Below, one piece after another: positions 12,785 through 34,452 of a DNA stretch of 41,569 nucleotides. Numbering within the stretch: position 1 is the first letter of the stretch; each line of letters begins with the position of its first letter. Origin of the DNA: an uncultured Mycoplasmatota bacterium (GTDB lineage Bacteria; Bacillota_I; Bacilli_A; RF39; UBA660); contig CAMFBT010000001.1 of the NCBI GenBank assembly GCA_945948625.1, positions 1-41,569 of the forward strand. The letters run 5' to 3'. The position numbers were made by a program, and so were the translations under genes. The notes below the pieces were generated by a model that was not told the DNA's origin, did not search any database, and saw nothing but the letters and a program-made list of their open reading frames with translations.

Positions 12785-12922
12785 ATGACAAGTAAGAAAT
12801 ATAAAATGTACTATGATTATCATAAAAGAACAAGTGGTGGTTTCCTAGATGCAATATTTTTATCTGGCATAATGTTAAGTGGCCTAATATTAATACTTCT
12901 TTCGTTAGTGGGAGGTAAATAA
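12785..12922 (+). CDS. 45-aa single-pass membrane peptide, translationally coupled to the AAA+ gene
   Basis: Not in the ORF track because it is under 60 aa. RBS GGGGAG lies 7 nt before the ATG. The product is MTSKKYKMYYDYHKRTSGGFLDAIFLSGIMLSGLILILLSLVGGK. Its stop overlaps the next start (TAATG). Confidence 0.4.
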   Translation: MTSKKYKMYYDYHKRTSGGFLDAIFLSGIMLSGLILILLSLVGGK

Positions 12923-13815
12923 TGGAATCAATACTAGAAAGATTTTCTGATAATTTAACAGAAACAAAATATATAACAAATCCCGCTATTGCTAGAGATG
13001 AAGAAATAAAAAAACTAATATTAGTACTTTTAACACCAGAGAAATCAGCAGTACTAGTAGGAAAACCAGGTATAGGAAAAACAGCAATAGTGGAAGGACT
13101 AGCTTATAGAATACAAAGAAATGAAGTACCAAAAGCACTTGAAGGATATACAATTTATAGAATAAATACAACATCATTATTGACAAATACTGGAGAAGAA
13201 AATAGAGTACTAAAATTAGTTGAAGAATTAAAACAAAAAGAAAGAGTAATATTGTTTATAGATGAAATACATACATTAATAGGAAGTGATACTGCTGGAG
13301 CTCTAGATTTAGCAAATATGTTTAAAGAAGGGTTAAGTAGAGGAACTATCAAGATGATTGGTGCAACAACAACATATGAATATGAAAAATATATATTAAG
13401 AGATAAAGCATTTTTAAGAAGATTTGAAAAAGTAGATGTATTAGAACCAACTGAAGAAATGACTGTAGAAATACTTTTAAAAACACTACCAAAATTAGAA
13501 TATCAAACAGGAGTAATATTACCATATACAGATTTTATTAAAGAAAAAATAATGAAGTTCATAGTAAATATGACAACAGAATTTAAAAGAGTATATGAAA
13601 TATCATCAAGATATCCTGATATAGCTTTAGTAATATTAAGACAATGCTTTTCAAATGCTATATATGAAAATAGAAAGACAATAGATTTTAAAAACATTTA
13701 TGATGCCATAAGAACAACAAAAGCAGTATATCCAGATGTTATAAAAAAAGAATTAATTAATTTTAAAGAAATATTTAAAGATGAATTAAAAGAAGAAAAT
13801 ATTGAAATAGAATAA
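12922..13815 (+). CDS. Stand-alone ClpA/ClpB/ClpC D1-type AAA+ module (no N-domain, M-domain or D2)
   Basis: NPAIARDEEIKKLILVLL, Walker A GKPGIGKTAIVEGLA, Walker B ILFIDEIHTLIGS, and the GATTTYEYEKYILRDKAFLRRFEKVDVLEPT sensor/Arg-finger block. The protein is only 297 aa. Confidence 0.75.
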   Translation: MESILERFSDNLTETKYITNPAIARDEEIKKLILVLLTPEKSAVLVGKPGIGKTAIVEGLAYRIQRNEVPKALEGYTIYRINTTSLLTNTGEENRVLKLVEELKQKERVILFIDEIHTLIGSDTAGALDLANMFKEGLSRGTIKMIGATTTYEYEKYILRDKAFLRRFEKVDVLEPTEEMTVEILLKTLPKLEYQTGVILPYTDFIKEKIMKFIVNMTTEFKRVYEISSRYPDIALVILRQCFSNAIYENRKTIDFKNIYDAIRTTKAVYPDVIKKELINFKEIFKDELKEENIEIE

Positions 13816-13846: not shown

Positions 13847-13876
13847 TTTACATAAGACCAAAAAGTGTGATATACT
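13847..13876 (+). promoter_or_regulatory. Candidate promoter of fibre-locus module A
   Basis: TTTACA, an 18-nt spacer, then tgaTATACT (extended -10), 15 nt upstream of the ATG at 13892. Confidence 0.4.
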
Positions 13877-13891: not shown

Positions 13892-14389
13892 ATGAAAAAA
13901 ATAGTAGTAAATGTTTTAATCATCTTGTATTTTCTAGTAGCAGTAGTAGTTACTTATGCATTATTATCTTATAATAAATACAACATAGTAGAAACAAAAG
14001 ATAAATATATCTTAACAATAAAAGAAGATAATCCAGATTTTAAAAAAAGTGATTTATTAGTAGTAAAAAAATCACAAGATTTAAAGGAAAAAGATTATGT
14101 ATTTTATTATGATACATATGCAACTAAAGTAACAGTAAAATATGCTAAAATAAAACAAATTAAAACAATCAATGAGGAAGAACAAGAGATTAACCTAGAA
14201 AATGATTTAGTATTATCAAGTGAGAATATTTTAGGAAGTAAAAAAAATACAATATCATATGCCATTATAGGCACAGTATTTAATGTATTAACATCAAAAT
14301 GGGGATACCTATTTATCATAATATTTCCAATGCTAATTGCTTTTATATATGAATTATATGCCATAGCAAAAGAAGTAAAGAGAAAATAA
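13892..14389 (+). CDS. Catalytically dead SipW-like signal peptidase paralogue (module A)
   Basis: Collinear with the SipW ORFs: an N-terminal TM helix, a PDFKKSDLLVVKK box, an ILG box and a C-terminal TM helix (WGYLFIIIFPMLIAFIYELYAI). The Ser box reads TIKEDNPD and the His box reads VKYAKIK. Confidence 0.65.
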   Translation: MKKIVVNVLIILYFLVAVVVTYALLSYNKYNIVETKDKYILTIKEDNPDFKKSDLLVVKKSQDLKEKDYVFYYDTYATKVTVKYAKIKQIKTINEEEQEINLENDLVLSSENILGSKKNTISYAIIGTVFNVLTSKWGYLFIIIFPMLIAFIYELYAIAKEVKRK

Positions 14390-14397: not shown

Positions 14398-15390
14398 ATG
14401 AAAAAAAATATTACAAGGATAAAAAATTATCTATCAGAGTTAGAATTAAAAAAAGGATTATTAAAAATAAAGGCAAAACTTGATAAATATGGTAAAAAAG
14501 CTTATATCCTATTGGGAACATTATTAATATTGGTACTTACAACAATAACATATGGAAAATATATCTATAATGATATTAGAGATTTCTATTTAGCCAGTAA
14601 GAGTTTCTATTTTAATAGTGATAAACTAACAGTAAATAGAGCTATCTATCAAGTAGATAATTGGTCAGCAGTAGATCCATATACCATAACAATAAATCTA
14701 AACAATAGTAAAAATAATTTAATCCATGCAAGTAGTGATATAACTTATGAAATAAGTTATGTTTGTTCTAATAATGTTTTATGCAGTATAAATAGTGAAG
14801 GAGGAACACTTTATACTGAAGAAGGATCAAGCTATTTTAATGCTGTAATAACTCCAAATTCAACATTCGAAGTAGGAGATGAAGCTTTTATAGAAATAAC
14901 AGTAAAAAGTACATATCCTTATAAAAAAACACTAAGTGGAAGATTTATTTTAAAAGTAGGAAAAAGCGGATTAACATATACTATAGATGATAAAATAGGA
15001 AGACCATATTTGAATTTTAATATAACAAATACAATTGATTACTATCTAGTAAAAGAAGCATTTGATAGTTATCAAGTTGGGGATAGAATAGATAGATTAA
15101 CATATATAGAATTACCAGAAGAAAATAAAAGAAAATGTCTTTCTGCAGAAGTGACATTAACATTTGATCCAAATAAAGTTATATTAGATACTACAAATAC
15201 TATATTTTTAAAGAAAGAAAGTTATACAACAACAACTATTAATAATTATGATTATATAAATAGTATAACTTTTAGAATGGATTCAGAATCAAGTGAAGTA
15301 GTAAAGTTTTATAAAAGTGATACAAACATAGACTATACATATCCAATAACAAATGACATTTCAATAATTAATTTCAGTTATTCAGAATAG
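14398..15390 (+). CDS. Secreted TasA-like family protein, class-2 signal motif (TTITYGKYIY), long form
   Basis: Basic n-region, a hydrophobic helix, then TYGKY. SFYFNSDKLTVNRAIYQVDNWSAVDPYTITINLNN aligns with AFYILNADYYEKNIHLDNIVPSETPYVYTFKVSN of ORF 34462. The RBS is weak. Confidence 0.55.
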   Translation: MKKNITRIKNYLSELELKKGLLKIKAKLDKYGKKAYILLGTLLILVLTTITYGKYIYNDIRDFYLASKSFYFNSDKLTVNRAIYQVDNWSAVDPYTITINLNNSKNNLIHASSDITYEISYVCSNNVLCSINSEGGTLYTEEGSSYFNAVITPNSTFEVGDEAFIEITVKSTYPYKKTLSGRFILKVGKSGLTYTIDDKIGRPYLNFNITNTIDYYLVKEAFDSYQVGDRIDRLTYIELPEENKRKCLSAEVTLTFDPNKVILDTTNTIFLKKESYTTTTINNYDYINSITFRMDSESSEVVKFYKSDTNIDYTYPITNDISIINFSYSE

Positions 15391-16391: not shown

Positions 16392-17915
16392 ATGGATACA
16401 TTTTTTAGATTTTTATATGAATTTCTTGAACAATTTTTTACCTCATTTATACTAATGTTTAAAGGAATAATAAATGGAGTAATAAATATGTTCAATATAA
16501 AAAAATATATAGCAATTATTAATTTCTATAAAGAAGACTTTACCATTCCAGAATGGGTATTAGTAGTACTTGCTATATTAATAGTTTTAACCATAATAGG
16601 AGGCATAGGATTTATAATATATTATCTAATCAGAAAATATTTAAGATTTAGAAAAACAATTGTAGAAGAAGAATCACTTCTTGAAGAAGTTGCCTCTTTA
16701 AATAATCAAGTATCAGATTTAATGGAAGAAAAAGAAAGTATATTAGCAATGAAAGTATCACAACTAGGATTGAAACCAGGTGAATCCCCTGAAGTAGAAG
16801 AAAATGATAAATCGGGTGAAGATGCAGATACTACCAAGAGTAGATTCCCTAAATTAACAGCAGTAGATATTGAATATTCAAAATATAAAGTAGTAAATTA
16901 TGCAAATAATTTTACTCTAGAGGAATTAGTAGAAACATTTCGTAATTTTGCAGCATCAAAACTAAAATTATATTATAAATCAGAAATGATAAGATTATTC
17001 ATTTCAGCACTAGCTTCAACTAAATTAGTAATATTACAAGGTATATCTGGTACCGGTAAAACCTCCTTAGCATATGCTTGGGGAAAATTCTTAAAGCACG
17101 ACTCATGTGTTGCTTCTGTTCAACCATCATGGAGGGATAGGACAGAATTATTTGGATACTTTAATGAATTCACTAAAAAGTTTAATGAGACAGAAGTGTT
17201 AAAAGAACTTTATGTAGCAGGTTATACAGATGACATATATACAGTAATTCTAGATGAAATGAATATTTCAAGAGTAGAGTATTATTTTGCTGAAATGTTA
17301 TCAATACTAGAAATGCCAAACAAAGATGAGTGGATAGTAGAATTAGTATCTAGTTCTTGGCCTGATGATCCTAAAAATATTGAAGATGGAAAATTAAAAA
17401 TACCTCCTAATGTATGGTATATCGGAACAATTAATAACGACGATTCAACATTTATGGTAACAGATAAAGTATATGATAGAGCAATGCCTTTAGACATAAA
17501 TGATAAAGGGCAAGTATTTGAACCAATAGATACAGATGCACAAGATATAAATTATACATATTTAGATAAATTATTTAGTGAAGCAATGAATAATAATCCA
17601 ATATCAGAAGATACACTAAATAAAATAAATGAGATGGATGATTATGTAATAAAGCATTTTAGAATAGCTTTTGGTAATCGTATTGTAGCACATATGAAGA
17701 AATTCGTTCCAGTTTATGTAGCTTGTGGAGGAAACGAAGTAGATGGTGTAGATTATTTTATAGCAAGAAAAATATTAAGAAAATTTGAGCAATTAAATAT
17801 ATCCTATATTAGAGATGAAATAGATGGTTATATTGAATTTCTAGATAAAACATTTGGAAAAGGAAAAATGAAAGAATGTGAAGAATATTTACTTAGATTA
17901 AAGAAATTAACATAG
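16392..17915 (+). CDS. Membrane-anchored McrB-like AAA+ GTPase
   Basis: Two N-terminal hydrophobic helices and a coiled coil. Walker A is LQGISGTGKTS, and the Walker B/McrB signature is ILDEMNISRVEYYFAEMLSILE. The NxxD box is NVWYIGTINNDDSTFMVTDKVYDRAMPLDI. Confidence 0.8.
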   Translation: MDTFFRFLYEFLEQFFTSFILMFKGIINGVINMFNIKKYIAIINFYKEDFTIPEWVLVVLAILIVLTIIGGIGFIIYYLIRKYLRFRKTIVEEESLLEEVASLNNQVSDLMEEKESILAMKVSQLGLKPGESPEVEENDKSGEDADTTKSRFPKLTAVDIEYSKYKVVNYANNFTLEELVETFRNFAASKLKLYYKSEMIRLFISALASTKLVILQGISGTGKTSLAYAWGKFLKHDSCVASVQPSWRDRTELFGYFNEFTKKFNETEVLKELYVAGYTDDIYTVILDEMNISRVEYYFAEMLSILEMPNKDEWIVELVSSSWPDDPKNIEDGKLKIPPNVWYIGTINNDDSTFMVTDKVYDRAMPLDINDKGQVFEPIDTDAQDINYTYLDKLFSEAMNNNPISEDTLNKINEMDDYVIKHFRIAFGNRIVAHMKKFVPVYVACGGNEVDGVDYFIARKILRKFEQLNISYIRDEIDGYIEFLDKTFGKGKMKECEEYLLRLKKLT

Positions 17916-17925: not shown

Positions 17926-19041
17926 ATGAATGAACTTGAAATAGTAAACTTATATGAAAAAACAAATCAAGATAGAAATAGCAGATTTTCAGAAAATATA
18001 AATTCAAGTCTTCGAGTAAAAACAGCCTATGATCGAGTAAATACAAGTTTTGAATGGCTTGAGATAATGGAAGAAACTATAAGATATTTAGATAATATAT
18101 TAAGAAACCCCAATAGATTTATAATAAATGAGGAAGATATTGTTAAAATAGAATTAGCCCGTCGAGTAACCGTAGAAAGCATAAAACATTTATCAAAAAA
18201 TACTAATTTAATTCAAGATTATAATAAAGAAACAGGAGATGTAAGACCAAGTAAAATATTAAATATAAATAAAGAAGAAAGTTTTGATACATATGAAAAT
18301 AGATTTATTTATAGTTTAATAAAAAATATGAAGTTTTTTATAGAAAGAAAAAAGAAAAATCTAATTACTGAGTCATATAGCAAAGATGATAAAACAATGG
18401 AATATACTGCTAAAAGTAGTATAGACAATGAAAATATAGATATATCAATGACTATAAATTCTAAGAAAGATGATAAAAAGAATATTAAAGATGAATCAGG
18501 TTTAACAATTCCCGAAAGAATAGAGAGGTTAGAAACCCAAATATCCGACTTAACATCATCTTCAGTATATCAAATAATTGATAAAAAACATATATCATTA
18601 GTAACATCTCCAATAAAAAAAACCAATGTAATATTAAAGAATGTAAACTTTCAATATGCTGTAAAACTATGGAATTATATGCAAAATCATATGGAAGATG
18701 ATACAAAAAAAGAAAAGAAAAATAATGATTATTATGATGATGGCAATATAAAAAAGTTAATAGATGAATCATTTCTATTAGACTATTTAGTTTTAGATAC
18801 AATAAATAGAGAAGAAGAAAAATATGATAAAAAAGCCTTATCAGAAAAAATTGTTGGTAACATGATAGAAAAAATGATAACAATTGACTCGACTATTGAT
18901 GAAAAAAAATTAAAAGAAATAATAGATAAACAATATAGTATAATAAAATATAAAACAGTAGTAAATGAAAAACAAATAGAAGAAGTCTATAAAAAATATA
19001 TGGATAAATATTTAGAAAAAATAAAAATGTTAGAAATATAG
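17926..19041 (+). CDS. McrC-like partner protein; nuclease motif not evident
   Basis: RBS AGGAGG, 10 nt after the McrB-like stop. FDTYENRFIYSLIKNM resembles the McrC/DUF2357 EDT-x-ANR-[IF]-I box. The C-terminal half is Lys/Glu-rich with no clear hydrophobic-strand D-x-K. Confidence 0.4.
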   Translation: MNELEIVNLYEKTNQDRNSRFSENINSSLRVKTAYDRVNTSFEWLEIMEETIRYLDNILRNPNRFIINEEDIVKIELARRVTVESIKHLSKNTNLIQDYNKETGDVRPSKILNINKEESFDTYENRFIYSLIKNMKFFIERKKKNLITESYSKDDKTMEYTAKSSIDNENIDISMTINSKKDDKKNIKDESGLTIPERIERLETQISDLTSSSVYQIIDKKHISLVTSPIKKTNVILKNVNFQYAVKLWNYMQNHMEDDTKKEKKNNDYYDDGNIKKLIDESFLLDYLVLDTINREEEKYDKKALSEKIVGNMIEKMITIDSTIDEKKLKEIIDKQYSIIKYKTVVNEKQIEEVYKKYMDKYLEKIKMLEI

Positions 19042-19052
19042 TGGTGATATGT

Positions 19053-19616
19053 ATGATAGAAAGAATAAAAAATAATAAAGCATTAAAAATAATATTAATG
19101 ATTTTAAAAGCAATAGTATCTTTATTTATAGTAATAGTAATTAGTATAATCTTTATTCAGAGAATATCTAATAATAAATTATCATTAGGTGGATATAGTA
19201 TATATACAATTATAACAGAAAGTATGGCACCAAAATATAAAGTATATGATATGGTAATAGCAAAAGAAACAGATTCTAATCAAATAAAAGTAAATGATGA
19301 TGTTGTATATTTAGGAAATAAAGATGATTTTGCAGATAAAATAGTAACACATAGAGTAATAAAAAAAGAAGTACTAGAAGGTAAAAATTATTTTCATACT
19401 AAAGGTATAGCTAACGATATAGAAGATCCCTTAGTTGGAGAAGAACAAATATTAGGAAAAGTAGTATATAAAAGTAGAGTATTAAGTATAATCAGTAAAA
19501 TAGTAAATAATCCTTATGGCTTTTATTTTGTAGTATTTGTTCCTTTTGCCATATTACTAGTAATGGAATTAATAGATATAATAGAAGAGAGAAAAGAAAA
19601 AAATCTAAGTAGGTGA
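19053..19616 (+). CDS. sipW: Signal peptidase I, SipW/archaeal-ER type (S26B), module A
   Basis: Start moved to the ATG at 19053, which follows GGTGA by 5 nt. The Ser box is IITESMAPKY and the His box is IVTHRVIK. It has both N-terminal and C-terminal TM helices. Confidence 0.8.
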   Translation: MIERIKNNKALKIILMILKAIVSLFIVIVISIIFIQRISNNKLSLGGYSIYTIITESMAPKYKVYDMVIAKETDSNQIKVNDDVVYLGNKDDFADKIVTHRVIKKEVLEGKNYFHTKGIANDIEDPLVGEEQILGKVVYKSRVLSIISKIVNNPYGFYFVVFVPFAILLVMELIDIIEERKEKNLSR

Positions 19617-20218
19617 TACTATTGAATGACCAAAAAAAGAAAAGAAAAAAAAGAAGGATTAGATTAAGAACAATATTTTTTCTTGCTATAACACTAGCCT
19701 CAAATAGTTTTGCTTGGTTTATATATTCGACAAAAGTATCAAATAATATTACTGCTAAAGTAAAAAGTTGGCATGTAAACTTTGAAATAGGAAATGGTGA
19801 AGAAATAGAAGAATACTTAGAAATAAATATAGATTCATTATATCCAGGAATGGAAACCTATCAAAAAACATTGAAAGCATCAAATAATGGTGAATCAGAT
19901 GCTTACATAAATTATGAAGTAGAAAAAGCAATTGTATTAGGAGAAAATCTTCTGACTTTAAATTTAACAGATAATCAAATAATAGATAAAATAAGAAATG
20001 ATTATCCATTTACTATTGACTTTAATGTTTCAAATAATATTATATCAAAAGCTGGTGGAGAAACTGAAATTACAATAAGTGTGAGTTGGCCATATGAAAA
20101 TGGTAATGATACAGAAGATACATACTGGGGAAACAAGTCATATGATTATCATCAAGAACATAGTGATCTGCCAAGTATTAGTTTAATAATTAAGATAACC
20201 GCAGTCCAAGTAGAATAG
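19613..20218 (+). CDS. Secreted TasA/camelysin-like protein, class-1 signal motif (SNSFAWFIYS), short form
   Basis: The KKKRKKRRIRLR n-region is followed by a hydrophobic helix and FAWF. IDSLYPGMETYQKTLKASNNGESDAYINYEV resembles the TasA/camelysin PG-x-x-x...N-x-G strand pair. The start is uncertain: GTG at 19613 or TTG at 19622. Confidence 0.6.
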   Translation: MILLNDQKKKRKKRRIRLRTIFFLAITLASNSFAWFIYSTKVSNNITAKVKSWHVNFEIGNGEEIEEYLEINIDSLYPGMETYQKTLKASNNGESDAYINYEVEKAIVLGENLLTLNLTDNQIIDKIRNDYPFTIDFNVSNNIISKAGGETEITISVSWPYENGNDTEDTYWGNKSYDYHQEHSDLPSISLIIKITAVQVE

Positions 20219-20325: not shown

Positions 20326-20910
20326 TTATTTTAATTGAGTAAAAGACAAATTAACATCCATTTTAGCAGTATTATTATTCTTAGTAGCTTCTGTATCAGC
20401 AGTATTATCCATAGTAGCATTTTCTCCATCATCCCATAAAACATAAACCCTAATATTAATAGGATTAGTATTATTAACTTGTAATACTTGATTAGAAATA
20501 GATTGATTATCTCTATCTAAATAAATAAATTCCCCATTATTAATACTATATTTAGTAGCTATTAAATCAGTAACAGAACTATTATTATTAACCGAAAAAT
20601 TAATACTATATTTAAAAGAAACATCAGCTTCTGTAGCATCTATAACAAGATCAAAATATCCTTCACTAGTAGGAGCAATAATACCATTTGCTATATGTTC
20701 ATTTCCTTCAAATACTGGAGTAATAATAGCATTAGTAGTACTCCCTTCTCTAATATCCTTATTATTAACAAGAATTCTCCATCTAGCTACATTCATTGTA
20801 GCATTTTCACTAGTAGCAGTTAAATACTTAGCATAAGATTCCTGTATAAAAAAAATACATAGTATAAAAGACAAGAAAGCCATAATAAAAATAAAATGTT
20901 TCTTCTCCAT
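20326..20910 (-). CDS. Secreted TasA-like family protein, class-2 signal motif (QESYAKYL); the only minus-strand gene in the window
   Basis: RBS AGGTGAT. It is a paralogue of ORF 33273: VARWRILVNNKDIREG aligns with VAKWNVLINGTDIKSG, IAPTSEGYFDLVIDATEADVSFKYSINF with IAPGTKGYFDIVINPTDTETSILYSITF, and NIRVYVLWDDGEN with TIRVYIKWNNIEEN. Confidence 0.6.
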   Translation of the reverse strand: MEKKHFIFIMAFLSFILCIFFIQESYAKYLTATSENATMNVARWRILVNNKDIREGSTTNAIITPVFEGNEHIANGIIAPTSEGYFDLVIDATEADVSFKYSINFSVNNNSSVTDLIATKYSINNGEFIYLDRDNQSISNQVLQVNNTNPINIRVYVLWDDGENATMDNTADTEATKNNNTAKMDVNLSFTQLK

Positions 20911-21239: not shown

Positions 21240-21953
21240 ATGGCAAAAGATGTAGTGGTAACAGCAGAAAAAGTCTATGGAAGAAAAAAGAAATATAGTA
21301 GTATAAAACTAATATTATCTATAGTTCTTATAATATTAACATTAACATTTATCATTTTAGGAGTAATATATAAAGGAGGAAAGTTTACAATAACTCTAGA
21401 CAATAGATTATCATCAGAAAGTGGAATAGTAATATATGAAGATTCAGAGATAAAAGAAACAAAAAGAAAATTGTCTGCTAGAGACATAGAATTCATGGAT
21501 AATATATCAATAAATTGGATTCCTCAAAATATAGATACCGAAAGTGATGGTTCTCATAACGGAGAAAACTATATAGCATATACATTCTATATAGAAAACG
21601 AAGGAGAAAAAACAGTAAATTATTGGTATACAATAATAATTGATGATGTCATAAAAAAAGTTGATGAAGCTGCTAGAGTTATGATATATTTAAATGGTAA
21701 TAAAAAAGTATATGCTAAAATAAATTCATTTACTAGTGAACCAGAAAAAGATACAATTCCATTTTATAGTGAAAAAGAAGCAGTATTAGAACAAAGAAAA
21801 GATTTCAAACCAAATGATATAGATAAGTTTACAATAGTAATATGGTTAGAAGGTGATGACCCAGATTGTATAGACAACATATTAGGTGGAGAAATAAAAA
21901 TGCATATGGAAATAAGAGAAGAACATAAGGAAGAGAGCGTAAAGAATGATTAA
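21240..21953 (+). CDS. Membrane-anchored member of the class-1 subunit family (no YAWF motif)
   Basis: RBS AAGGGAG and one TM helix (IKLILSIVLIILTLTFIILGVI). The C-terminal FTIVIWLEGDDPDCIDNILGGEIKMHMEI matches the YMW[IV]EGQDVDCENN box of ORFs 21946 and 35175. Confidence 0.55.
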   Translation: MAKDVVVTAEKVYGRKKKYSSIKLILSIVLIILTLTFIILGVIYKGGKFTITLDNRLSSESGIVIYEDSEIKETKRKLSARDIEFMDNISINWIPQNIDTESDGSHNGENYIAYTFYIENEGEKTVNYWYTIIIDDVIKKVDEAARVMIYLNGNKKVYAKINSFTSEPEKDTIPFYSEKEAVLEQRKDFKPNDIDKFTIVIWLEGDDPDCIDNILGGEIKMHMEIREEHKEESVKND

Positions 21954-22950
21954 TAATAAAAAGAAAAACAAAAAAAGAAAATATAGATTATTTTATTTAT
22001 TATTGCTATTATTAGTAACAACATTATCTTTATCAGTATCATCATATGCTTGGTTTACCACTAATAGATTAGTAAGAGTAGATTTATTAAATGTAAATGT
22101 CAGGGCACAAGGAGGAATAGAAATATCCGTAGATGGAACAAATTGGAAATCATCAGTATCAGTAGAAGATATAATAAATGCAAAAGATACCTATCAGACA
22201 AATACCAATCAAATACCAACAACCATAGAAGCAGTTTCAACGGCAGGTAAAATAAATAATGGTAAAATAGAAATATATCATGGTAATGCAGTAAATAATG
22301 CAGTAGGAGATTATATTCTTGAAACAACAAGAAGTGTTGAAATACAATCAGCAGAGGGTAGTCAAGGAAAGTTTATAACATTTGATTTATTTTTAAAGAC
22401 AAATAAAAATACAGCATTATATTTAACACCAGAATCAAATGCAACCTATAGTGGTGATAAATCAGTTGGAATAGAAAATGCTGTTCGGTTTGCCTTTATA
22501 GAAGAAGGAACAACATTTGTAGGATCTTCATTAAATACCATCCAGTCAATGACCACAAATGATCAGAGTAAAGTTCATATATGGGAACCAAATTATGATA
22601 CACATACAGAGTATGGAATAGAAAATGCCAAAGATATATATAACATAAATATAACAAATCCATCAGAATCATTAAATTATGATGGTGTGATAAGCGAAAT
22701 ATCAAAAACAGCTGGAGTAACAACAAGTACTGCTAATGAGGCAACATACCCAGAATATTTTGCGAGAGTAAAAGTAGATTATTACACAAAGAATAACTTT
22801 GACAACAATATTGAAATATTTACTATTAATAGCGGAATAACAAAAATAAAAGTATATATGTGGATTGAAGGACAAGATGTAGATTGTGAGAATAATGCTG
22901 CTGTTGGTAATATTGCTCTAAATCTAAACTTTAGTACAAACCCATCTTAA
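21946..22950 (+). CDS. Secreted TasA-like large subunit, class-1 signal motif (SSYAWFTT), module A
   Basis: KKKNKKRKYR n-region, a hydrophobic helix, then SYAWFT. It is a full-length paralogue of ORF 35175 (IWEPNYDTHTEYG aligns with IWEPNYDIHTAAG, and YMWIEGQDVDCENNAAVGNI with YMWVEGQDVDCENNASGGNI). Confidence 0.65.
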   Translation: MINNKKKNKKRKYRLFYLLLLLLVTTLSLSVSSYAWFTTNRLVRVDLLNVNVRAQGGIEISVDGTNWKSSVSVEDIINAKDTYQTNTNQIPTTIEAVSTAGKINNGKIEIYHGNAVNNAVGDYILETTRSVEIQSAEGSQGKFITFDLFLKTNKNTALYLTPESNATYSGDKSVGIENAVRFAFIEEGTTFVGSSLNTIQSMTTNDQSKVHIWEPNYDTHTEYGIENAKDIYNINITNPSESLNYDGVISEISKTAGVTTSTANEATYPEYFARVKVDYYTKNNFDNNIEIFTINSGITKIKVYMWIEGQDVDCENNAAVGNIALNLNFSTNPS

Positions 22951-22995: not shown

Positions 22996-23024
22996 TAATA
23001 TGATATAGATGGTAGGTGGTAGAA

Positions 23025-26000
23025 GTGCAGAAATTAAAAAGAAAAATAAAAGCATTAAAAAATAATACAAAGTTTAAAGTTCGTCTTCTAGTAGGAACAT
23101 CTTCTTTACTACTTTTGATAATAGGAATAACCACATACTTTACTACCTACAGTGATTTAATATTAGAATTCAGTGAAGATCCAGATTATATTGAAAGTTC
23201 TATAAAGAATAATAAAGTAATAGTAAATGATTTAGAGAATGATTATAATTACTATCAAGGACAAAACTATCTAGACAATGATGGAACTCTACCTACAACT
23301 GATAACAAAAATATTTATAATGATAGCACACTAGTTCAAGCCAAGATAACTTACTATAGTGATGATGATAATAATCATAAAGGGTATGTATCTTCTAGTG
23401 AAAGACAGGATACATACATCTATTTCAAAACTTTTTATGTGAATAATAATGGCACTGATGATACTACTGATGACTATGTACTTATTGAATTAATCGATAA
23501 TCCATTTACTGATAGGCCTACTGATAAAGCCTTTAATGGATGGTTTACTGATTACAATGGAGCTACACTAAGTTTTAATAAAGATTATTATGAAAGATAT
23601 GCAAAAGTGCCGGTAACTTATACTGATAATAAACCTAATAAGATAGAAATAACTTTTAGAGCTAGCTGGGTAGGAGCCAAAATAACTACAATAACAAGTT
23701 CTAATAGTTGGAATAGTACGATTGAAAGTTTAAATACTCCTGAAATGCACAAGTTAGAGACTATAATTAATATTTATGAAGATGTCGACATGACAGGATA
23801 TTATCACCAAGTAAGTGTAAGATTTTTTGATAGTTGTACAGGCTACTATAATAATAGAGGTCAAAGACAAAACAACTGTACCTGCTATTCTTTTGGTGGT
23901 TGTACTTACTATGACTTAATCAATGGTGAAAACTTTAATGAAAATGCAACATATTATGAATTACAAAATAATAATATGCAGTTAGTGGATAATAGTACTA
24001 TCAATAGACCACTTATTGAAACAATTGAAGACACAAGTTATGAAAATGGTATTATGTCATCATTTTATCGTAAAATTTTAGTACCTAGAGGAAGTAGTAT
24101 TATTGGCTATTATGATAGCACTGGAAATATTATGACTAGTGGTAGTTGTACGACAGATGGTGGTTGCACTTATTATGAATTAATTAATTATTATAAAAGC
24201 AATAGTACTCCCGAAATATATGATGAAAATGAAGAGTATTATTATTTGACGACTAGGGATACTAATATTATTGTCATGGGCTCTAATATAGAGGGAACTT
24301 GGTCAACTACAGAGGATATTCCTTTTACTGTAACAGCTTTAAATAATGGTACACAAAATAATGTAACATGGAATGCTAATTCCGCTATTAACTGTTATAG
24401 TGATGTTCGAATAGAGAATATTACTTTATATTATGATAGTGTTATAACAGAAATATATGATCCACCATCTAATACAATGGCATCAGGTGTTTTGTATGGG
24501 CGATATAATAATGTAAAATTAGGTAGAGGTCTAACTCAAAATGGCAGTTATCCAACACTTAGAGCAGTAATAGGAGGAAGTAACTCATCTATTGGTAGTA
24601 ATAATTCACCGGCTAAATATAAACTAGTTATAGAAAGTGGTATTTATAATTCTATATCACTAACTAATGGTGCTACCCGGTATGGTGGTTCCACTATATA
24701 TGTTAAAAACAAGGGTGTTTATGGTAATGACTATGATCGTGTAATAAAAGATAATGATAGTCTAGATGTATACTATTGTGCTTCGGGTAGTTGGAGTGGT
24801 ACCGTATATGCGAGTACTAATTCTGCTACTTCTAGCGATATAGCTTTAGATTTAGTTGTCAAAAATGGTAGCTTTGGTAGCAGTAAATATGATCTATCTA
24901 CAGGAATATATGTCGGAGGTAGATATGCCGGTACTCACAATGCCGCTCGAAGAGCTAAAATTGAAGGTGGTTATATCTACAATTTAATTGGAGGACCTCT
25001 TACTAGTAGTAGGAGGAGTAGTGTCAACGATACCTATATTAATATGACAGGCGGGGAAGTAGATATTATAATTGGTGGTGCAGGAACGACCGCTACTTAC
25101 GGAAACCGAATCATATCTGTAACTGGTGGTACAGTTAATTATAGTGTCTTTGGAGGTTCCAATGGTGCAAAAGGTAATGAAGGAGATGGTACTCTAAATG
25201 GAACGCCTTATATCTATATTGGTGGAACTGCTACAATTGGTAATGATACTAATATAAGTAATAATAATAAATTATTTGGGGCAGAATCGGGAAGTGTTTT
25301 TGGAATTGGAAATGGAAAAGAAAATTCTTCTACTATTGGTTCAGCAGATAATTCAATCATCATAATAGATGGTAATTCTAATATTAAAAGAAATATTTAT
25401 GGTGGTGGAAATTATGGTGCTACAGGAGTAAGTAGCAGTTTAAGTAGTACTTATTCAACTATAATAATTAATGATGGCTTCATTGATGGTGATGTCTATG
25501 GTGGCGGTAATAACAATGGAAGTGGTTCTGAGAGTAAAACATCAACAGTTAGCATTACCATGAATGGTGGTAATGTTGTTGGATCAATTTATGGTGGTAG
25601 TAATGAACTTGGTACAATATATGGCTCTACCAATGTAAACATTTTTGGTGGTGAAGTATCAAATAATGTTTATGGAGGAGGACGAGGTGGTTATATTAGT
25701 GATAGTGCTATAGGAACCTTTGTAGTCAGCGATGTCAACATTGTTATAGGTGATTCGAATAGCACTTATACACCAATAATTGATGGAAGTGTCTATGGTG
25801 GTAGTGCTTTTGGTTCTGTAAATGGTAGTGAAAATACAAACACTGTCAGTTCTAGCAAAACAAATGTCACCATAAATAAAGGTATAATAAATAATGTCTT
25901 TGGTGGTGGTCAAGGAAATAATACATATACACCTTATGTACTAGGAAATATTGAAGTAACAGTAAATAATGGAACAATTACTAATGTGTATGGAGGAAAT

Positions 26001-29000
26001 GACCTAAAAGGAAAACCAAATGGAAATATAACAGTAACAATAAATAATGGCACAATTGAAAATACTTATGGTGGAGGAAACGAAACATCCGCTAATGAAA
26101 CAAATGTGTATTTAAATGGAGGCACATCAACTAAATTATTTGGAGGTTCAAATAAAAATGGAGATGTTGTAATTAGTAATGTCACAGCAACAGGTGGAAC
26201 TTGTGAAACTTTATATGGAGGAAATAATGCTGGTGGCACCACCGGAACAACAAATGTTTTAATAAATGGTGGAACTATAAATACAGTATATGGAGGTGGT
26301 GATAAAACCTCAGTAACTACAAGTACAAATGTAGTAGTAAATAATAAAGTAGATACTATTTTTGGTGGCTCAAACCTATCAGGAAACATACCTCTATCAA
26401 ATATTGAAGTAAATAATGCAATAATAAATGCCGTGTATGGTGGTAATAATCAAGGTGGAAAAGTAGAAACAACTAATGTAAACATAAATGGTAATTTTAT
26501 CGATTCTGTATATGGTGGAGGATTAAAAGCTGAAACTACAACTACAAATCTAAATTTAAATTATGGATTAATAAAGAATGTTTATGGTGGAGGAAACGAA
26601 GCTGGAGCTAATGAAACAAATGTTAATTTAGGAGGAGCGGACATAATTAATCTGTTTGGAGGCTCAAATAAAAGCGGAGATGTACAAAATACATATATAA
26701 AAAATATAGAAGATTTCGTAGTTAGCGATTTATCAGCAGAATTTACTATTAGTCAGTCCAATATAAATCAAATTGGAGCTACAGATATTTCTGGAAGTGA
26801 AACTATTACCGTAGAGATAAATAATAATACAGGAGTAACTTTATCAGAATGGGATTTATATATATTAACAAGTGAAAGTATATTTGATTCAAACTGGAGT
26901 TCATCAGAAGTAGAATTTGATAGTATTAATAATATATATCATATAGATGAAACAAATCAGTGGTACGGTACAAATAGTTTAAATAATGGAACACCATTTA
27001 CTTTTGAATTTAATATTCACTCATATGATACATATGAAAACTTTAAAATATATAGTTATATGCTAATAGGATATGATACTAATGGTAATCAATATACAAG
27101 CAAGTTAACCGTAGATAAAATGTATGGTGGAAATAATTTAGGTGGAATTACTAATAATGCTCAAATAGATTTAACCGCAGGTAGTATTAATGTCTTATTT
27201 GGAGGAGGAAATAAAGCAAGTGTAACAAATTCTAGCACAAATATTGATAATGTAGTTATAAATGAAGAAATCTATGGAGGAGGAAATGAAGCTGATGTTT
27301 CATCAGTAATTTTAAATATAAACAATTCTGAAGTAGGAAATATAACAAAAAAAGGAGTAGTTTATGGCGGAGGAAATGCTGCTAAGGTAACAAATAGTTT
27401 AGAACTAAATATAAATTCTTCAGAAATAAATGGTAATATTTATGGTGGAGGAAATAAAGGAAAAGTAGAAACAAAAGCTAAAACTACTATTACTACAAGT
27501 CATATAACAGATAATATCTATGGCGGAGGAAATGAAGCTGAAGTTCAAACCACAGAAGTAAATATAAAACAAAATACTAACATAGATAAGAATATTTATG
27601 GTGGAGGAAATCTAGGTACTGTATTAGGAGAAGCAAATACTGTAATAGAAAACTCAAATATAACAAATAGTGTTTTTGGTGGAGGAAATGCTGCTGAAGT
27701 ACAAGGGAATGCTAATGTAACCATTCATAATAGTATAATTGATGAGGCTATTTATGGTGGAGGAAATGGCGAATATTCAATTGTACCAGGAGATGAAATA
27801 GGAGATCAAAATCCAGCAAAAGTATTAGGAAATACGAACTTATTAGTAGATGAAAATACCAAAGTCAAAACCATTTACGGTGGAGGAAATCTAGGAAAAG
27901 TAAATAAAGATACTAAAATAGAAATAAAAAATATAACAGTTACTGATTCAATTTATGGTGGAGGAAATGCTGCCATTGTAGGAGAAAATACTAATTTATA
28001 TGTATCAAATGTAAATGTAACAAATAGTATATATGCTGGAGGAAATGGTTTATTAGCAGTAGTATATGGAAATACAAACCTAGATATCGATAATAATACA
28101 GTAGTAGGAAAACATGTTTTTGGTGGAGGAAATGCTGCTGCCACTGGTACTGAAGAAAACAATAATTCTAAAGGAATAGTAAACATAGTAGGAGCAACAA
28201 TAAATGGCAATGTTTATGGAGGAGCTAATACCTCACAACTATATGGTGATACTACAGTAAATATAGGAAACTTAACAAGTAGTAACCAAAACCTAATAAA
28301 ATCTGATATTGTAATAGAAGGAACGGTATTCGGTGGAGGAGAAGCAAATGCTAGTGGTAGTGAAGAATATGATTATTCCTTCATAAGTGTAACAGTAGGA
28401 ATAAAAATTAATATTAACGGTTCTGGACATGATACATTTACAATAAAAGGATCAATATTTGGAAGTGGTAATGCTTCTTCAACTACAGGATATAGTTATA
28501 TAGATATCAAAAACTATGGAACAAAAGAAGATATAAAGAGAAATATATCAATTCAGAGGGCAAATATTGTAACATTAGATAATTCATATATTGAATTAAA
28601 AGGTGCAACAGATAGAACAAATGAGTATTCAACAGTATTGTTCTCTTTGAGTAGAATAGATGAATTAAAACTAATAAATAATACATCATTATATCTTCAA
28701 AATGGAGGTAACTTAGTCAAAAAATTATCTAGTTTAACTATAGAAAATAATATTGAAACAAAAGCACAAGTAACTATAGATACTGAAACAAATACTTTTA
28801 CTAGAAATACTAATAATAGAATATATATGTTAGAAGGAAAAAATCTAAATATAGCTACAAATGAAAATATAACATCATTTGGTGAAGTATCTGGAATGAC
28901 TTTCTTTGGTATGTATTTAAATAGTATAAATGGTGATATAGTAACAGCATTATATAATGATTATGATCCATCAGCATCTGTATCATCAGGAGATATTTAT

Positions 29001-31084: not shown

Positions 31085-31204
31085 ATGTCGAGAAAAGATA
31101 TCGAAGAATTAAGCGATGCAGATATAGTAGAATTATATAAAGAAATAAAAGATTTCATAGTTTTTCTTGAAAAAGAAATAATAGGTGATAATAATGCTAA
31201 ATGA
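31085..31204 (+). CDS. 39-aa acidic peptide, possible small ORF
   Basis: Not in the ORF track. A strong RBS (AGGAGGA) lies 4 nt before the ATG. The product is MSRKDIEELSDADIVELYKEIKDFIVFLEKEIIGDNNAK. It overlaps the next gene by 11 nt. Confidence 0.4.
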   Translation: MSRKDIEELSDADIVELYKEIKDFIVFLEKEIIGDNNAK

Positions 31205-32681
31205 ATATAAAAATAAAATTGAAGTTCAAAAAGAAGTATTATTATCACTTCCAAGAAATAATAATAAAAATGAAAAAGTATATCAAGCCAAAATAGGAGA
31301 GTTATTAGAAGAACTACAAAAAGAAAAAGAAGTAGTAGCAAGTGAAATCAGAAAAAGAAGAGATAGATATTTATCTTTAGAACATGACAAAAGTATAGAT
31401 TTACTTACAAAAGAAATAGACTTGCTACTACCATCTATCCATCTATTAAATAATTATAATTCTTCATATGAAAAAAGTAGTTTAGATATAATATTATATG
31501 AATTAGGACATTTCTATAAAACTGACTTAGAAAAAGTAAATAAAGATATAATAAAAGTATTAACAATCTTTTCTACAGTAGGAGTTACTTTAACGGAAGA
31601 AGACTTTAATTATAGTTATTATAGTGATAAATATATGAGAAAGATTCTATTACAAAGTACAAGTGAAGAAGAATTAAAAAACCATTTTGAAGAAATATAT
31701 TGGAAATGTCCTAATATAATAACACATATAACATTAAATCTAAAATATTTATACTATAAAAATAAAAAGAAATTTGATTTATATTATGAAAATAAAGTAA
31801 AAGAATTAGAAGATAGAAATATTATTGAAGCATATAAAGAATTATATATTGAAAGAGAACAAAAAGTAAAAAATGATGCTTATCTATTACAAGGTAGTTT
31901 TTTAGAAGGAAAACTAAATATAGGTGACTATACATTAGATAAAATAAATAAAGCATATAAATCAGTAATAGAGGACCTTCCATCAGAAAAAATAAATAGC
32001 GATATATTAAAGTTATATCATTCATTAATAGAATATAAAAATTACTTAGAATTTAATTATATAATAAATGATATAAAAGAACTATATAAAGAAAGAGATA
32101 AATATAAAAATATTTATAACAATAAGAAAAAAGAAATAGATAAGCTAGAAAGAGCACTTTCAAAGACTAATAAAAAAGTTTTAAAATTAATCTCCAAAGG
32201 AAAACAAGATAAAATAGATGTATTAAATAGTAAAATAAATATTAATATAAATAATTTAAAAAACCTATATGAAGAATTAGAAAAAAATTATTTTCTAGAA
32301 AAAATATCATTACTTGAAGATAGTACAACAATATATGATATTTTGTTATTAGCAATTTCTAATTATAATTACTTAATAGAATTACTAAAGAAAAATGAAA
32401 AAGACTTAGAAGAAATAAATAAATTAAATAATTTTATCAATAATCCTCATAACAGTATTTTAAATAACATTTTAATAGAAGAAGAAAAAGATTTAAGTAT
32501 GTTAATAATGGATAGATATAATTTATTTGGCTTTAATTTAACAAAAGAAAAACTAGAAAAAGATAATATTGAAAATTTAATAAAAGACTTAGAAATAATA
32601 TTAAATAGTATGGCAATGAATAGAGAAGGAATAACTGAAAATAGAATAAAGTTTATTAAAGAAACACAATATTTAGAATAA
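31194..32681 (+). CDS. Cytoplasmic helical, coiled-coil-rich protein of unknown function
   Basis: Start moved to the ATG at 31194, 5 nt after AGGTGA. It has no TM helix or signal peptide and shows Lys/Glu/Asn/Leu heptad-like stretches. Confidence 0.55.
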   Translation: MLNEYKNKIEVQKEVLLSLPRNNNKNEKVYQAKIGELLEELQKEKEVVASEIRKRRDRYLSLEHDKSIDLLTKEIDLLLPSIHLLNNYNSSYEKSSLDIILYELGHFYKTDLEKVNKDIIKVLTIFSTVGVTLTEEDFNYSYYSDKYMRKILLQSTSEEELKNHFEEIYWKCPNIITHITLNLKYLYYKNKKKFDLYYENKVKELEDRNIIEAYKELYIEREQKVKNDAYLLQGSFLEGKLNIGDYTLDKINKAYKSVIEDLPSEKINSDILKLYHSLIEYKNYLEFNYIINDIKELYKERDKYKNIYNNKKKEIDKLERALSKTNKKVLKLISKGKQDKIDVLNSKINININNLKNLYEELEKNYFLEKISLLEDSTTIYDILLLAISNYNYLIELLKKNEKDLEEINKLNNFINNPHNSILNNILIEEEKDLSMLIMDRYNLFGFNLTKEKLEKDNIENLIKDLEIILNSMAMNREGITENRIKFIKETQYLE

Positions 32682-32749: not shown

Positions 32750-33283
32750 ATGAAAAAAGTTTTAAAAATAATAGGAATAATACTAATAGTCATATATGCA
32801 GTAGTGGCTATAACACTTACAATATTTCTACTAAATTACAATAAATATAATATAACAGAAATAAATGATAAGTCATTAATAATTGTAAGAGATGAAGAAT
32901 TAAAACCAGATTTTCAAAAGGGAGATTTAGTAATAGTAAAGAAAAATCAAAATAAAGATATAAAAGTAGGAGATAAAATATTCTTTTATGACAATTATAA
33001 AGATATAGTTTCTGTTAATTTAGGAACAGTATTAGAAAAAGAATCAATAACAAAAGAGGAAACTACATATATTATGGATGGAGATTATGCTGTATCTAGT
33101 GAATATGTAATAGGAACTGCTAAAACAAGTAAATCTTATAGCAATTTAGGAACAATATTAGGAGTACTAGAATCAAGATTCGGTTTCCTATTTATGATAA
33201 TATTTCCTATACTTGTATTATTTATATATGAGATATATGCAGTAATAAGAGAATTAAAGAGTTCAAAAGAAGATGAAGAATAA
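32750..33283 (+). CDS. Catalytically dead SipW-like signal peptidase paralogue (module B)
   Basis: Paralogue of ORF 13892. IVRDEELKPDFQKGDLVIVKK aligns with IVSGSMEPTLNIKDLIVVKN of the active enzyme, so the nucleophile Ser is lost. The His box reads VNLGTVL. The C-terminal TM helix RFGFLFMIIFPILVLFIYEIYAV is conserved. Confidence 0.65.
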   Translation: MKKVLKIIGIILIVIYAVVAITLTIFLLNYNKYNITEINDKSLIIVRDEELKPDFQKGDLVIVKKNQNKDIKVGDKIFFYDNYKDIVSVNLGTVLEKESITKEETTYIMDGDYAVSSEYVIGTAKTSKSYSNLGTILGVLESRFGFLFMIIFPILVLFIYEIYAVIRELKSSKEDEE

Positions 33284-33872
33284 GAGAATATTAATAATAC
33301 TATCCATAATTTTAGTTTTTATAACAATATATATTATAAGAGATACTTATGGATTGTTTGAAAGTAAAAATACAATGATTATGGATAGCGGTGTAGCAAA
33401 GTGGAATGTATTAATAAATGGAACAGATATAAAAAGTGGTGATAATTTTATTGTAGATACTGTAAATATTGATAGTTCAGATAATGTTTTAGGTGGAAAA
33501 ATAGCTCCTGGAACTAAAGGATATTTTGATATAGTTATAAATCCAACAGATACAGAAACATCAATATTATATAGTATAACTTTTGATTTTAGCCAAGTAG
33601 TAGGTAGTATTACTATTGATAAAATAGAAGAACTTACAAGTGGTAATTTAATAAGAACAGGAGAAAATACTTATTCAAAAATAATAACATTAGAAGAAAT
33701 AGAAAATAAAGTAATAAACACAATTCGTGTTTACATAAAATGGAATAATATTGAGGAAAATAATGAAGAAGACAGTAAAATTGGAACAATAAAGGATAAT
33801 TTTATTAGTATTCCAGTATCAGTTTCAGTTATTCAATATTTAGGTGAACCAGTGGAAGAATATCAAAATTAA
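33273..33872 (+). CDS. Secreted TasA-like family protein, class-2 signal motif (RDTYGLFES)
   Basis: MKNKR n-region, a hydrophobic helix, then TYGLF. It is a paralogue of the minus-strand ORF 20326-20910. Confidence 0.6.
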   Translation: MKNKRILIILSIILVFITIYIIRDTYGLFESKNTMIMDSGVAKWNVLINGTDIKSGDNFIVDTVNIDSSDNVLGGKIAPGTKGYFDIVINPTDTETSILYSITFDFSQVVGSITIDKIEELTSGNLIRTGENTYSKIITLEEIENKVINTIRVYIKWNNIEENNEEDSKIGTIKDNFISIPVSVSVIQYLGEPVEEYQN

Positions 33873-33891: not shown

Positions 33892-34452
33892 ATGGTAAAG
33901 TATATGAACAAAACATTTCAAGTTTTTCTTGATATCTTAGTATTTATAATCACCGTTTTAATTTTTTTTTCATTATATAATTTTATATCAATAAAACTAT
34001 TACATAAAGAATATCCCAATATATTAGGCTTTACAGCATTTGAAATAGTAAGTGGAAGTATGGAACCAACATTAAATATCAAAGATCTAATAGTAGTTAA
34101 AAATACCACAGATATAAAAAAAAATGATATCATAACCTATATAGATAATAAAGATTTTATAACACACAGAGTAATAAAAATTGAAGGCAACACATTAACA
34201 ACTAAAGGGGATTCAAATAACAGTAATGACGTCAGAATAGATAAAACAAAAATAATAGGGAAAGTAGTATTAATAATACCAAAAGGAGGATTAATAAGAG
34301 AAGTATTTACCACTCCTAAAGTAGTAATATCAATAGTAGTAACACTAATATTAATAAGTTTAAGTGTTTCTTATATACCCAAAAATAAAAGAAAACATAA
34401 AACAACACTAGATGATAAATTCGAGGATCCAAGTTGTATATTTAAGAAGTAG
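33892..34452 (+). CDS. sipW: Signal peptidase I, SipW/archaeal-ER type (S26B), module B
   Basis: The Ser box is EIVSGSMEPT (Ser codon at 34057-34059), followed by KDLIVVKN, the His box FITHRVIKI and TKGDSN. It has both N-terminal and C-terminal TM helices. Confidence 0.85.
   Translation: MVKYMNKTFQVFLDILVFIITVLIFFSLYNFISIKLLHKEYPNILGFTAFEIVSGSMEPTLNIKDLIVVKNTTDIKKNDIITYIDNKDFITHRVIKIEGNTLTTKGDSNNSNDVRIDKTKIIGKVVLIIPKGGLIREVFTTPKVVISIVVTLILISLSVSYIPKNKRKHKTTLDDKFEDPSCIFKK

Follow-up and report, generated by a model that had tools for sequence, protein, structure and literature searches.

The DNA analyzed here, referred to below as the window, is a stretch of 41,569 nucleotides from an uncultured Mycoplasmatota bacterium (contig CAMFBT010000001.1). 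Its forward strand carries two genes, deadA (bp 13892-14389; 165 amino acid residues) and deadB (bp 32750-33283; 177 residues), whose products are non-catalytic relatives of the signal peptidase SipW. The deadA protein has an N-terminal transmembrane (TM) helix, an extracytoplasmic β domain, and a C-terminal TM helix. Two additional genes of the same strand encode active signal peptidase I enzymes of the endoplasmic reticulum (ER) type. SipW-A (bp 19041-19616) has the motifs ESMAP and THRV and scores 58.7 bits on the NCBIfam model TIGR02228; SipW-B (bp 33892-34452) has GSMEP, THRV, and KGDSNNSND and scores 78.2 bits, the curated cut-off being 51.85 bits for both. An initial annotation, made from the sequence of the window, had described deadA and deadB as catalytically dead SipW paralogues. 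The coordinates that it gave for the two open reading frames (ORFs) are exact, and all of the strings that it quoted are found in the sequence.

The deadA and deadB proteins are full-length homologues of the ER-type (SipW/Sec11/archaeal) signal peptidase I. The NCBIfam models sigpep_I_arch and SipW match both proteins collinearly and from end to end, with E values of 2e-7 to 2e-5 (2e-5 for deadA against SipW). The scores lie below the curated cut-offs: deadB reaches 31.0 bits on TIGR02228, the archaeal/ER-type model, against 51.85, and deadA reaches 24.2 bits on NF046067 against 190. The NCBIfam scan gave no match of the dead proteins to the bacterial-type model, TIGR02227. Pfam offers just a faint match to Peptidase_S24 (E 0.03-0.08); NCBIfam and profile methods are needed because Pfam alone misses these proteins. 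Profile comparison is far more telling. When a 65-sequence profile of the dead family was aligned by hhalign with a 23-sequence profile of the neighboring active SipWs, 149 columns were aligned, from the first TM helix (TM1) to the second (TM2), with a probability of 98.65% and an E value of 4.6e-16. A search of all PDB sequences with the dead-family profile returned SEC11A and SEC11C as the sole matches.

Structures were predicted for deadB and for the 199-residue protein encoded next to it. The AlphaFold2 (AF2) model of deadB has a mean predicted local distance difference test score (pLDDT) of 86.4, and in it helixes of residues 2-28, 133-141 (a short helix), and 143-174 surround the β domain. 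The top three PDB entries found by Foldseek for this model are SEC11A, SEC11C, and, in third place, Streptococcus pyogenes SipA (4n31_A). Thus the SipW architecture is kept in the dead proteins: a Lys-rich cytoplasmic N-terminus, TM1, an extracytoplasmic S26-type β domain, an amphipathic helix, and the C-terminal TM helix.

The initial annotation also held that the two dead proteins are closer to each other than to any enzyme, and pairwise BLAST agrees. deadA and deadB are 43% identical over 155 residues (E 4e-44), versus 24% identity at an E value of 3e-6, or an E value of 0.009, for comparisons with the active copies. Likewise, deadA scores 185 bits on the hidden Markov model (HMM) of the dead family and 21.6 bits on that of active SipW. 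An orthologue of deadA, P0150, is 71% identical to it and has an identical gene context in the locus L039 (here and below, P numbers denote homologous proteins and L numbers denote loci). Less general than first described is the shared P-x-[FY]-K-x-x-D box. It is present in deadA and SipW-A; deadB reads PDFQKGD and SipW-B reads PTLNIKD at this place. The two active peptidases of the window differ in their likeness to the dead family: SipW-A scores 42.7 bits on the dead-family HMM, and SipW-B gives no match. SipW-A also has the C-terminal TM signature common to the dead family, PYGFYFVVFVPF..ME. Because the signature is shared and the HMM score is seen in SipW-A only, sequence comparison suggests that the dead family descends from a SipW-A-like ancestor.

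The catalytic residues are gone from both dead proteins. On the G-S-M-x-P box of the enzymes, E50 of deadB takes the place of the nucleophile Ser, L51 that of the Met, and P53 that of the Pro, a placement on which the profile alignment with SEC11A and the hhalign alignment agree. The corresponding box of deadA reads TIKED--NPD, and a 2-residue deletion takes the nucleophile position. The histidine count is 0 in deadA and 0 in deadB, and a Ser/His dyad is therefore impossible. Loss of the dyad had been claimed at the outset and is borne out. The companion claim, that the general-base His is replaced at a particular place, holds in that both aligned candidates are residues other than His, but the exact column is ambiguous: V89 of deadB is opposite the His in the SEC11A alignment, and K97 is opposite it in the hhalign alignment. 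Since the dead proteins contain no His, the ambiguity is moot. The GDxNNxxD loop of the enzymes is shortened to GD, such that G111 and D112 of deadB are kept, NNxxD is deleted, and the second Asp is lost. Lacking the Ser, the His, and the Asp loop, and scoring below the curated thresholds, the dead proteins should be described as non-peptidase homologues of S26B.

What holds for deadA and deadB holds across the family, as judged from 129 near-full-length representatives, any two of which are less than 50% identical. Of these, 34 have a gap at the nucleophile column, 23 have N, 20 have E, 12 have D, and 9 have S, with T, V, and K also found. The column of V89 is I or V, that of K97 is I in 36, K in 28, and V in 28, and that of the GD Asp is D in 37, N in 31, G in 29, and E in 14. 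No His-rich column exists among the 129 members, and the ectodomain is without His in 61 of them. In contrast, among 23 active orthologues S56, M57, and R93 never vary, and H92 and the GD motif scarcely do. Compared with the enzymes, the dead family has its conservation pattern reversed. In bits per column, conservation is lowest in the nucleophile box (1.31) and in the strand of the His (1.37), and highest at the junction following TM1 (2.63), in the helix preceding TM2 (2.53), and in TM2 itself (2.34). Near-universal residues are G134 (99%), N31 (98%), G122 (97%), S142 (94%), and P153 (93%).

It might be argued that the dead proteins are still peptidases that rely on unconventional residues, for instance an acidic residue, or a Ser elsewhere in combination with a Lys. 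The deadB subfamily conserves K97, which is opposite the His in one alignment, S142 is conserved to the extent given above, and 9 of the 129 members do have Ser at the nucleophile column. Against this proposal, the nucleophile column is a gap or one of seven different residues, no extracytoplasmic Lys or His is conserved across the family, and the members with a nucleophile-column Ser have no matching base. S142 is located at the membrane interface, opposite a non-catalytic Thr of the enzymes. Furthermore, no segments are less conserved than the catalytic boxes, and SipA and SpsA, signal peptidase relatives with comparable substitutions, are inactive (PMC4049620, PMC12414704). We consider retained peptidase activity to be very improbable. 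A cryptic alternative dyad was also sought and rejected: where Ser occurs at the nucleophile column or close to it, no base accompanies it consistently.

A third kind of SipW paralogue was encountered in a metagenome-assembled genome (MAG) labeled 'Clostridia bacterium', in which a 188-residue protein (L004:5972-6538, equal to L005:4832-5398) is encoded between the active SipW and the dead-family gene. This paralogue keeps a DSMSP nucleophile box, but its general-base His is replaced by Ser (YIISRITKI) and KGD by KAD. It scores 172.6 bits on the active HMM and 42.5 bits on the dead HMM. It may be an intermediate form, or catalysis may have been lost in it independently.

The dead family is large. 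An exhaustive profile search found 606 clusters (at 50% identity) with E≤1e-10 and 2328 with E≤1e-3; true peptidases are probably among the weaker matches. A search with deadB gave 190 close homologues, and the 120 listed are mostly 154-223 residues long, with a few shorter or longer outliers. All of the named members are called 'hypothetical protein' in the source databases, and ten distant representatives are without a name. Long extensions on the cytoplasmic side, C-terminal to TM2, occur in P0241 (681 residues in all), P0187 (438), P0126 (394), and P0238, P0261, and P0265 (360-373); close relatives of deadB have short tails rich in Lys and Glu, as in P0003 (209 residues).

For the study of gene context, one genome was taken per GTDB species, giving 33 loci, 30 of which extend far enough downstream to be informative. 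All 33 are from uncultured gut Bacilli. The taxon labels are those of the depositors and include 'Tenericutes', 'Firmicutes CAG:321', 'Clostridium sp. CAG:628/CAG:914', 'Erysipelotrichaceae', and 'Bacilli bacterium'. The MAGs of four loci (L010, L027, L029, and L031) were deposited as 'uncultured Muribaculaceae', i.e., Bacteroidota, despite a Firmicutes-type cassette; these labels likely reflect mislabeled bins or contamination.

The dead genes are retained under purifying selection. The ORFs are full-length and uninterrupted in all 33 species loci, most of the listed clusters are similar in length, and the top-scoring members inspected among the 606 clusters are mostly intact. For pairs of deadB orthologues with synonymous divergence (dS) of 0.37-0.6, the ratio of nonsynonymous to synonymous change (dN/dS) is 0.12-0.25, and for the active SipW encoded two genes downstream the same pairs give 0.12-0.20; both are Nei-Gojobori (NG86) estimates, which are approximate for genes as AT-rich as these. 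Among more distant pairs, it is often the dead protein that has changed less, as in the comparison of the window with L009 (72% identity, versus 53% for the enzyme). The initial annotation had proposed that a function is retained, and had named frameshifted, neutrally evolving orthologues as the finding that would speak against it; the orthologues are instead intact and constrained. Decaying pseudogenes, or chance ORFs, left by duplication of sipW might be suspected in view of the lost catalytic residues and the uniform 'hypothetical protein' names. This suspicion is ruled out by the intact ORFs of the 33 loci, the dN/dS values, and the near-invariant positions in a set of proteins less than 50% identical. 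Conserved synteny, a conserved gene overlap (see below), and a confidently predicted fold argue the same way, and the probability that we would assign to pseudogenes is negligible.

The genes that follow deadB form a conserved cassette. In each of the 30 informative loci, the order is: the dead gene, a homologue of about 200 residues of the gene at bp 33273-33872, an active SipW, and a gene of about 190 residues, usually followed by a gene of about 350 residues. The expectation that dead and live copies occur together is thus borne out in 30 of 30 loci. The active SipW has S-M-x-P and T-H-R-[VI] in most loci; that of L033 is present and is partly masked by N's. In the window, the second gene (bp 33273-33872, forward strand; 199 residues) encodes a candidate TasA-like fiber subunit, the signal peptide of which is of the SipW type (..DTYG|LFES..). 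The first 11 nt of this gene are the last 11 of deadB (GAAGATGAAGAATAA), and the overlap recurs in most loci. The overlap of the two genes in the deadB subfamily suggests that they are translationally coupled. Downstream of SipW-B, the third gene, comes the fourth (bp 34453-35049, forward strand), encoding a secreted protein of 198 residues with a SipW-type signal peptide (..PIAYS|KLFS..). Nearly all loci have a gene of about 190 residues in this fourth place; in the 11 loci that were read, the N-terminal signal motif of its product is conserved. The fifth gene (bp 35175-36254, forward strand) encodes a secreted protein of about 359 residues, with the signal TSTYAWFTSN and a faint match to TIGR04088, cognate_SipW. 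The listed ORF of 383 residues begins with GTG at bp 35103, 24 codons before the methionine (MEEK..) used by the L001 and L006 orthologues, and comparison with these orthologues indicates that bp 35175 is probably the true start. A terminator-like hairpin at bp 36276-36297 follows the fifth gene and closes the second module.

The cassette proteins share signals in the style of SipW substrates: [ST]-Y-[GAS] then [LIK]-[FY]-[ED]-[ST], [YF]-S then [KR]-[LFY], and TSTYAWFT. The AF2 model of the 199-residue protein, computed from a 37-sequence alignment, is a β-sandwich with a pLDDT of 77.8, in which residues 27-40, just past the putative cleavage site, are of low confidence. Foldseek places the TasA fiber (8aur_A) at the top of the matches to this model, with an E value of 1.2e-3 and a weak template-modeling score of about 0.3; lower matches are to archaeal cannulae (CanA), the Pyrobaculum ABP pilin 7ueg, and FimG. 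Scans with Pfam and NCBIfam found no match to TasA or camelysin, nor any sortase domain among the neighboring proteins scanned. SipW is known to pair with fibers of the TasA family, which are built by donor-strand exchange (PMC9674648, PMC9245690). The TasA-like assignment, weak as it is and drawn from a predicted model, would fit this pairing.

The deadA gene has its own conserved surroundings. The order AAA ATPase, deadA, a protein of about 320-330 residues with a SipW-type signal followed by FYFNSDKL, and a protein of about 320 residues is found in the window, L039, and L026. In the window, the gene following deadA (bp 14398-15390, forward strand; 330 residues) begins 8 nt past the deadA stop and has the signal ..TITYG|KYIY.., then FYFNSDKL. 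Thus, for both dead subfamilies, the immediate downstream neighbor encodes a pre-protein with a SipW-type signal rather than a peptidase. The AAA ATPase of the window (bp 12922-13815; 297 residues; PF00004, E 1e-12) is encoded directly before deadA, and L039 has a 295-residue AAA homologue in the corresponding place. Because the homologue holds the same position, the ATPase may belong to the deadA module.

These arrangements bear on a second explanation of the family, namely that the active SipW has the dead protein as a non-catalytic subunit or regulator, the two forming a membrane heterodimer that tunes specificity, timing, or stability, much as accessory subunits do in the eukaryotic signal peptidase complex or pseudoproteases do when paired with proteases. 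Dead and active genes lie in one same-strand string in every informative locus. The TM helixes and membrane-proximal segments, as the most conserved parts, might form a helix-helix interface, and Staphylococcus aureus SpsA is likewise encoded beside an active enzyme, SpsB (PMC12414704). Opposed to this are the deadA-type genes, which are not adjacent to an active peptidase: SipW-A in the window is 4.6 kb and four genes downstream of deadA, and the genes after the deadA-type copies in L026 and L039 encode proteins of 326 and 318 residues. It is the substrate-like pre-protein, rather than the enzyme, that is the invariant immediate neighbor in both subfamilies. A SipW subunit is accordingly a possibility that we hold to be doubtful, if a serious one.

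What the dead proteins may do is suggested by comparison with SEC11A. In the 2026 structure of the human signal peptidase complex with a signal peptide, the h-region is held by a 'helical gear' made of TM1 and the C-terminal helix of SEC11A (PMC13385932). The gate residues are W36, directly following TM1, and T153, directly preceding the C-terminal helix, and the c-region is bound mostly through backbone β-sheet hydrogen bonds (PMC13385932). In the profile alignment, Y30 of the dead family aligns with W36 of SEC11A. S142 aligns, by hhalign, with the conserved Thr of the 'TP' motif that precedes the last TM helix of the active enzymes. The S1-pocket residues V52, M57, and F61 of SEC11A align with V46, L51, and F55 in the deadB subfamily. 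Because the conserved TM helixes and outer-leaflet junctions of the dead family match the elements of SEC11A that hold the h-region, we infer that the dead proteins capture a signal peptide without cleaving it.

The best explanation, to which we would give a probability of about one-half, is that the dead protein binds, but does not cleave, its cognate pre-subunit in the membrane and serves as a holdase or assembly factor. On this proposal, the dead protein would hold the signal peptide, or the N-terminal donor-strand region, of the pre-subunit encoded directly downstream, would never cleave it, and would act as a dedicated factor in its assembly. The bound pre-subunit might be handed to the active SipW in a form ready for assembly. 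Alternatively, it might be kept at the membrane, where a TasA-like donor-strand-exchange fiber would start from it or be anchored by it. The dead protein would then be the ER-type counterpart of SipA in its role in S. pyogenes sortase pili. The initial annotation had spoken of a substrate-binding chaperone, docking, or polymerization platform; the conservation pattern, the coupling to a TasA-like gene, and, by analogy, the SipA precedent make such a role plausible.

Several points weigh against the holdase proposal. All members of the family are found in uncultured organisms. The TasA-like call is as weak as stated (E 1.2e-3, score about 0.3). The gatekeeper equivalences are drawn from sequence alignments, not from superposition. 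The extracytoplasmic groove is poorly conserved family-wide, and the nucleophile box contains 2-residue deletions, as in deadA. With so variable a groove and a deleted nucleophile box, binding of the c-region in the manner of SEC11 or SipA is perhaps lost in some members. Finally, strong TM conservation would fit contact with the active SipW, or with another membrane partner, as well.

In a variant of substrate binding, the dead protein would be an anti-peptidase, or protector of a signal anchor, that occupies the signal peptide of the adjacent protein and so blocks cleavage by SipW, such that the subunit stays anchored in the membrane as the base of the fiber. The tight coupling of the dead gene to one pre-protein and the retention of the elements that hold a signal peptide are in keeping with this idea, as is the existence in Bacillus subtilis of a separate anchor and nucleator, TapA, that is absent here (PMC9245690, PMC10151520). 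However, the neighbor has an ordinary motif of small residues at -3 and -1 ([ST]-Y-[GAS] then [LIK]-[FY]), like the other cassette substrates; the adjacent protein bears no mark of uncleavability, and the idea is a purely inferential one. We take it to be rather unlikely, less so than retained catalysis and more so than a SipW subunit.

Returning to the holdase or assembly factor, a more specific form can be put forward tentatively, as an idea less likely than the general proposal. In it, the dead SipW would give monoderm bacteria a dedicated membrane platform on which a TasA-like donor-strand-exchange fiber is assembled without a sortase. By capturing the first subunit through its signal peptide and nascent donor strand, the platform would nucleate or anchor polymerization at the membrane. 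If so, the platform would fill the role played elsewhere by ushers, TapA, or SipA, and pseudo-signal-peptidases would be a recurrent solution to fiber assembly, arrived at separately by the P-type and ER-type lineages.

The remaining genes of the two modules are as follows. Between the deadA genes and SipW-A are a 507-residue P-loop protein (bp 16392-17915), with GISGTGKT and a faint nSTAND3/AAA-like match, and then a 371-residue DUF2357 protein (bp 17926-19041), a pair that resembles McrBC-type pairs. In L039, the genes up to the start of the 507-residue homologue, at least, travel with deadA. The pair may be either an inserted defense module or a part of the fiber system. Downstream of SipW-A is a gene for a 201-residue secreted protein with the signal motif NSFAWF (bp 19613-20218, forward strand). 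On the reverse strand, bp 20326-20910 encode a 194-residue paralogue of the TasA-like 199-residue protein, 27% identical to it by sequence comparison. A 237-residue membrane-anchored protein of the first module (bp 21240-21953) has no family match and, unlike its neighbors, no [ST]-[YF]-[AGS]-then-x-[FY] signal motif. Its stop overlaps the next start (bp 21946), that of a forward-strand gene (bp 21946-22950) for a 334-residue paralogue of the bp 35175-36254 protein, with the signal SSYAWFTTN. Farther along, bp 23016-31076 (forward strand) encode a 2686-residue, repeat-rich (..YGGGN..) surface protein, with an N-terminal TM helix or signal, dozens of repeats, and no Pfam match. Orthologues of 2650-2750 residues lie upstream of the dead gene in L001-L005, and the protein is presumably a surface adhesin or a fiber component of the same locus. 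Just upstream of deadB, bp 31185-32681 (forward strand) encode a 498-residue protein with no Pfam match; a 479-residue protein is found at the same place in L001-L003.

The statement that each module opens with its dead gene is not borne out by these comparisons. Syntenic genes of the same strand lie upstream in the window and in L001-L003, and the giant protein lies upstream in L004 and L005. A promoter scan does place an extended -10-like site at bp 13847-13876, upstream of deadA. In DNA as AT-rich as this, however, the counts of promoter-like sites equal those of shuffled sequences, and the scans do no better than shuffles in marking a start.

The significance of the family can be put in several ways. 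It is a large dark family, of about 600 clusters, that belongs to a conserved five-gene cassette of abundant uncultured gut Bacilli. The catalytically dead signal peptidases known so far are from the Ser/Lys lineage only, and the dead SipW family adds a second, independent origin of the ER type. It also offers a natural 'substrate-trap' version of a Sec11-type enzyme, in which the SEC11A-like membrane elements are kept and catalysis is discarded. Should it prove to act in assembly, the dead protein would account for the way in which organisms without TapA start or anchor TasA-like fibers, and a five-gene cassette that can be expressed heterologously would open up the surface-fiber biology of unculturable gut bacteria.

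The initial annotation knew of no pseudo-SipW. In the literature searched, the coverage of which is incomplete such that absence of evidence is all that can be claimed, no dead or inactive ER-type SipW paralogue was found described. Dead signal peptidases in general do have precedents, namely SipA/LepA and SpsA, which the initial annotation had missed, and its implication that there are none needs qualification. SpsA of S. aureus is inactive, adjoins the active SpsB, is suspected of binding peptides, and was long held to be a possible pseudogene (PMC12414704). The likeness to the dead proteins is that of an inactive signal peptidase I paralogue near an active enzyme. The differences are that SpsA is P-type, is encoded outside any fiber operon, and has an essentially unknown function.

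Closest in sequence and structure are SipW of B. subtilis and SEC11A/C (PDB 7p2p, 7p2q), which share the fold and topology of the dead proteins and give the best matches by either measure, and which are active Ser, His, Asp enzymes. The arrangement of sipW together with tasA-like genes is common to B. subtilis and the dead-gene cassette. Moreover, Terra et al. are said to have described, in J Bacteriol in 2012, a peptidase-independent role of SipW in surface-adhered biofilms that needs its C-terminal region. A functional analogy is possible with TapA of B. subtilis and CapP/BC1280 of B. cereus, which are accessory factors encoded with TasA-like subunits and SipW, and which promote or anchor polymerization (PMC10151520; bioRxiv 10.1101/2024.02.27.582368). 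TapA and CapP are, however, secreted substrates of SipW, unrelated to the dead proteins in sequence and fold. The comparison with iRhoms and derlins, made in the initial annotation, is conceptual only: these are membrane pseudoproteases that keep the recognition of client TM helixes, and they are eukaryotic and of unrelated fold and catalytic class.

The most instructive precedent is SipA/LepA of S. pyogenes, in which the catalytic Ser is replaced by Asp and the Lys by Gly, and which, with its peptide cleft preserved, is inactive and yet essential for pilus polymerization (PMC4049620). Common to SipA and the dead proteins are a signal-peptidase fold, the loss of both catalytic residues, an acidic replacement of the nucleophile, and a location within a surface-fiber gene cluster, a putative one in the case of the dead proteins. 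SipA is needed for polymerization of the fiber rather than for cleavage, a role that the dead proteins may share. SipA is also a P-type protein (Ser/Lys, S26A) with a single N-terminal TM helix, and it serves covalent, sortase-built pili. The dead proteins belong to the ER-type (Ser/His) lineage, have a conserved C-terminal TM helix, and are encoded beside an active SipW and TasA-like subunits. Thus, they are pseudo-signal-peptidases of the ER-type lineage and are outside the SipA family.

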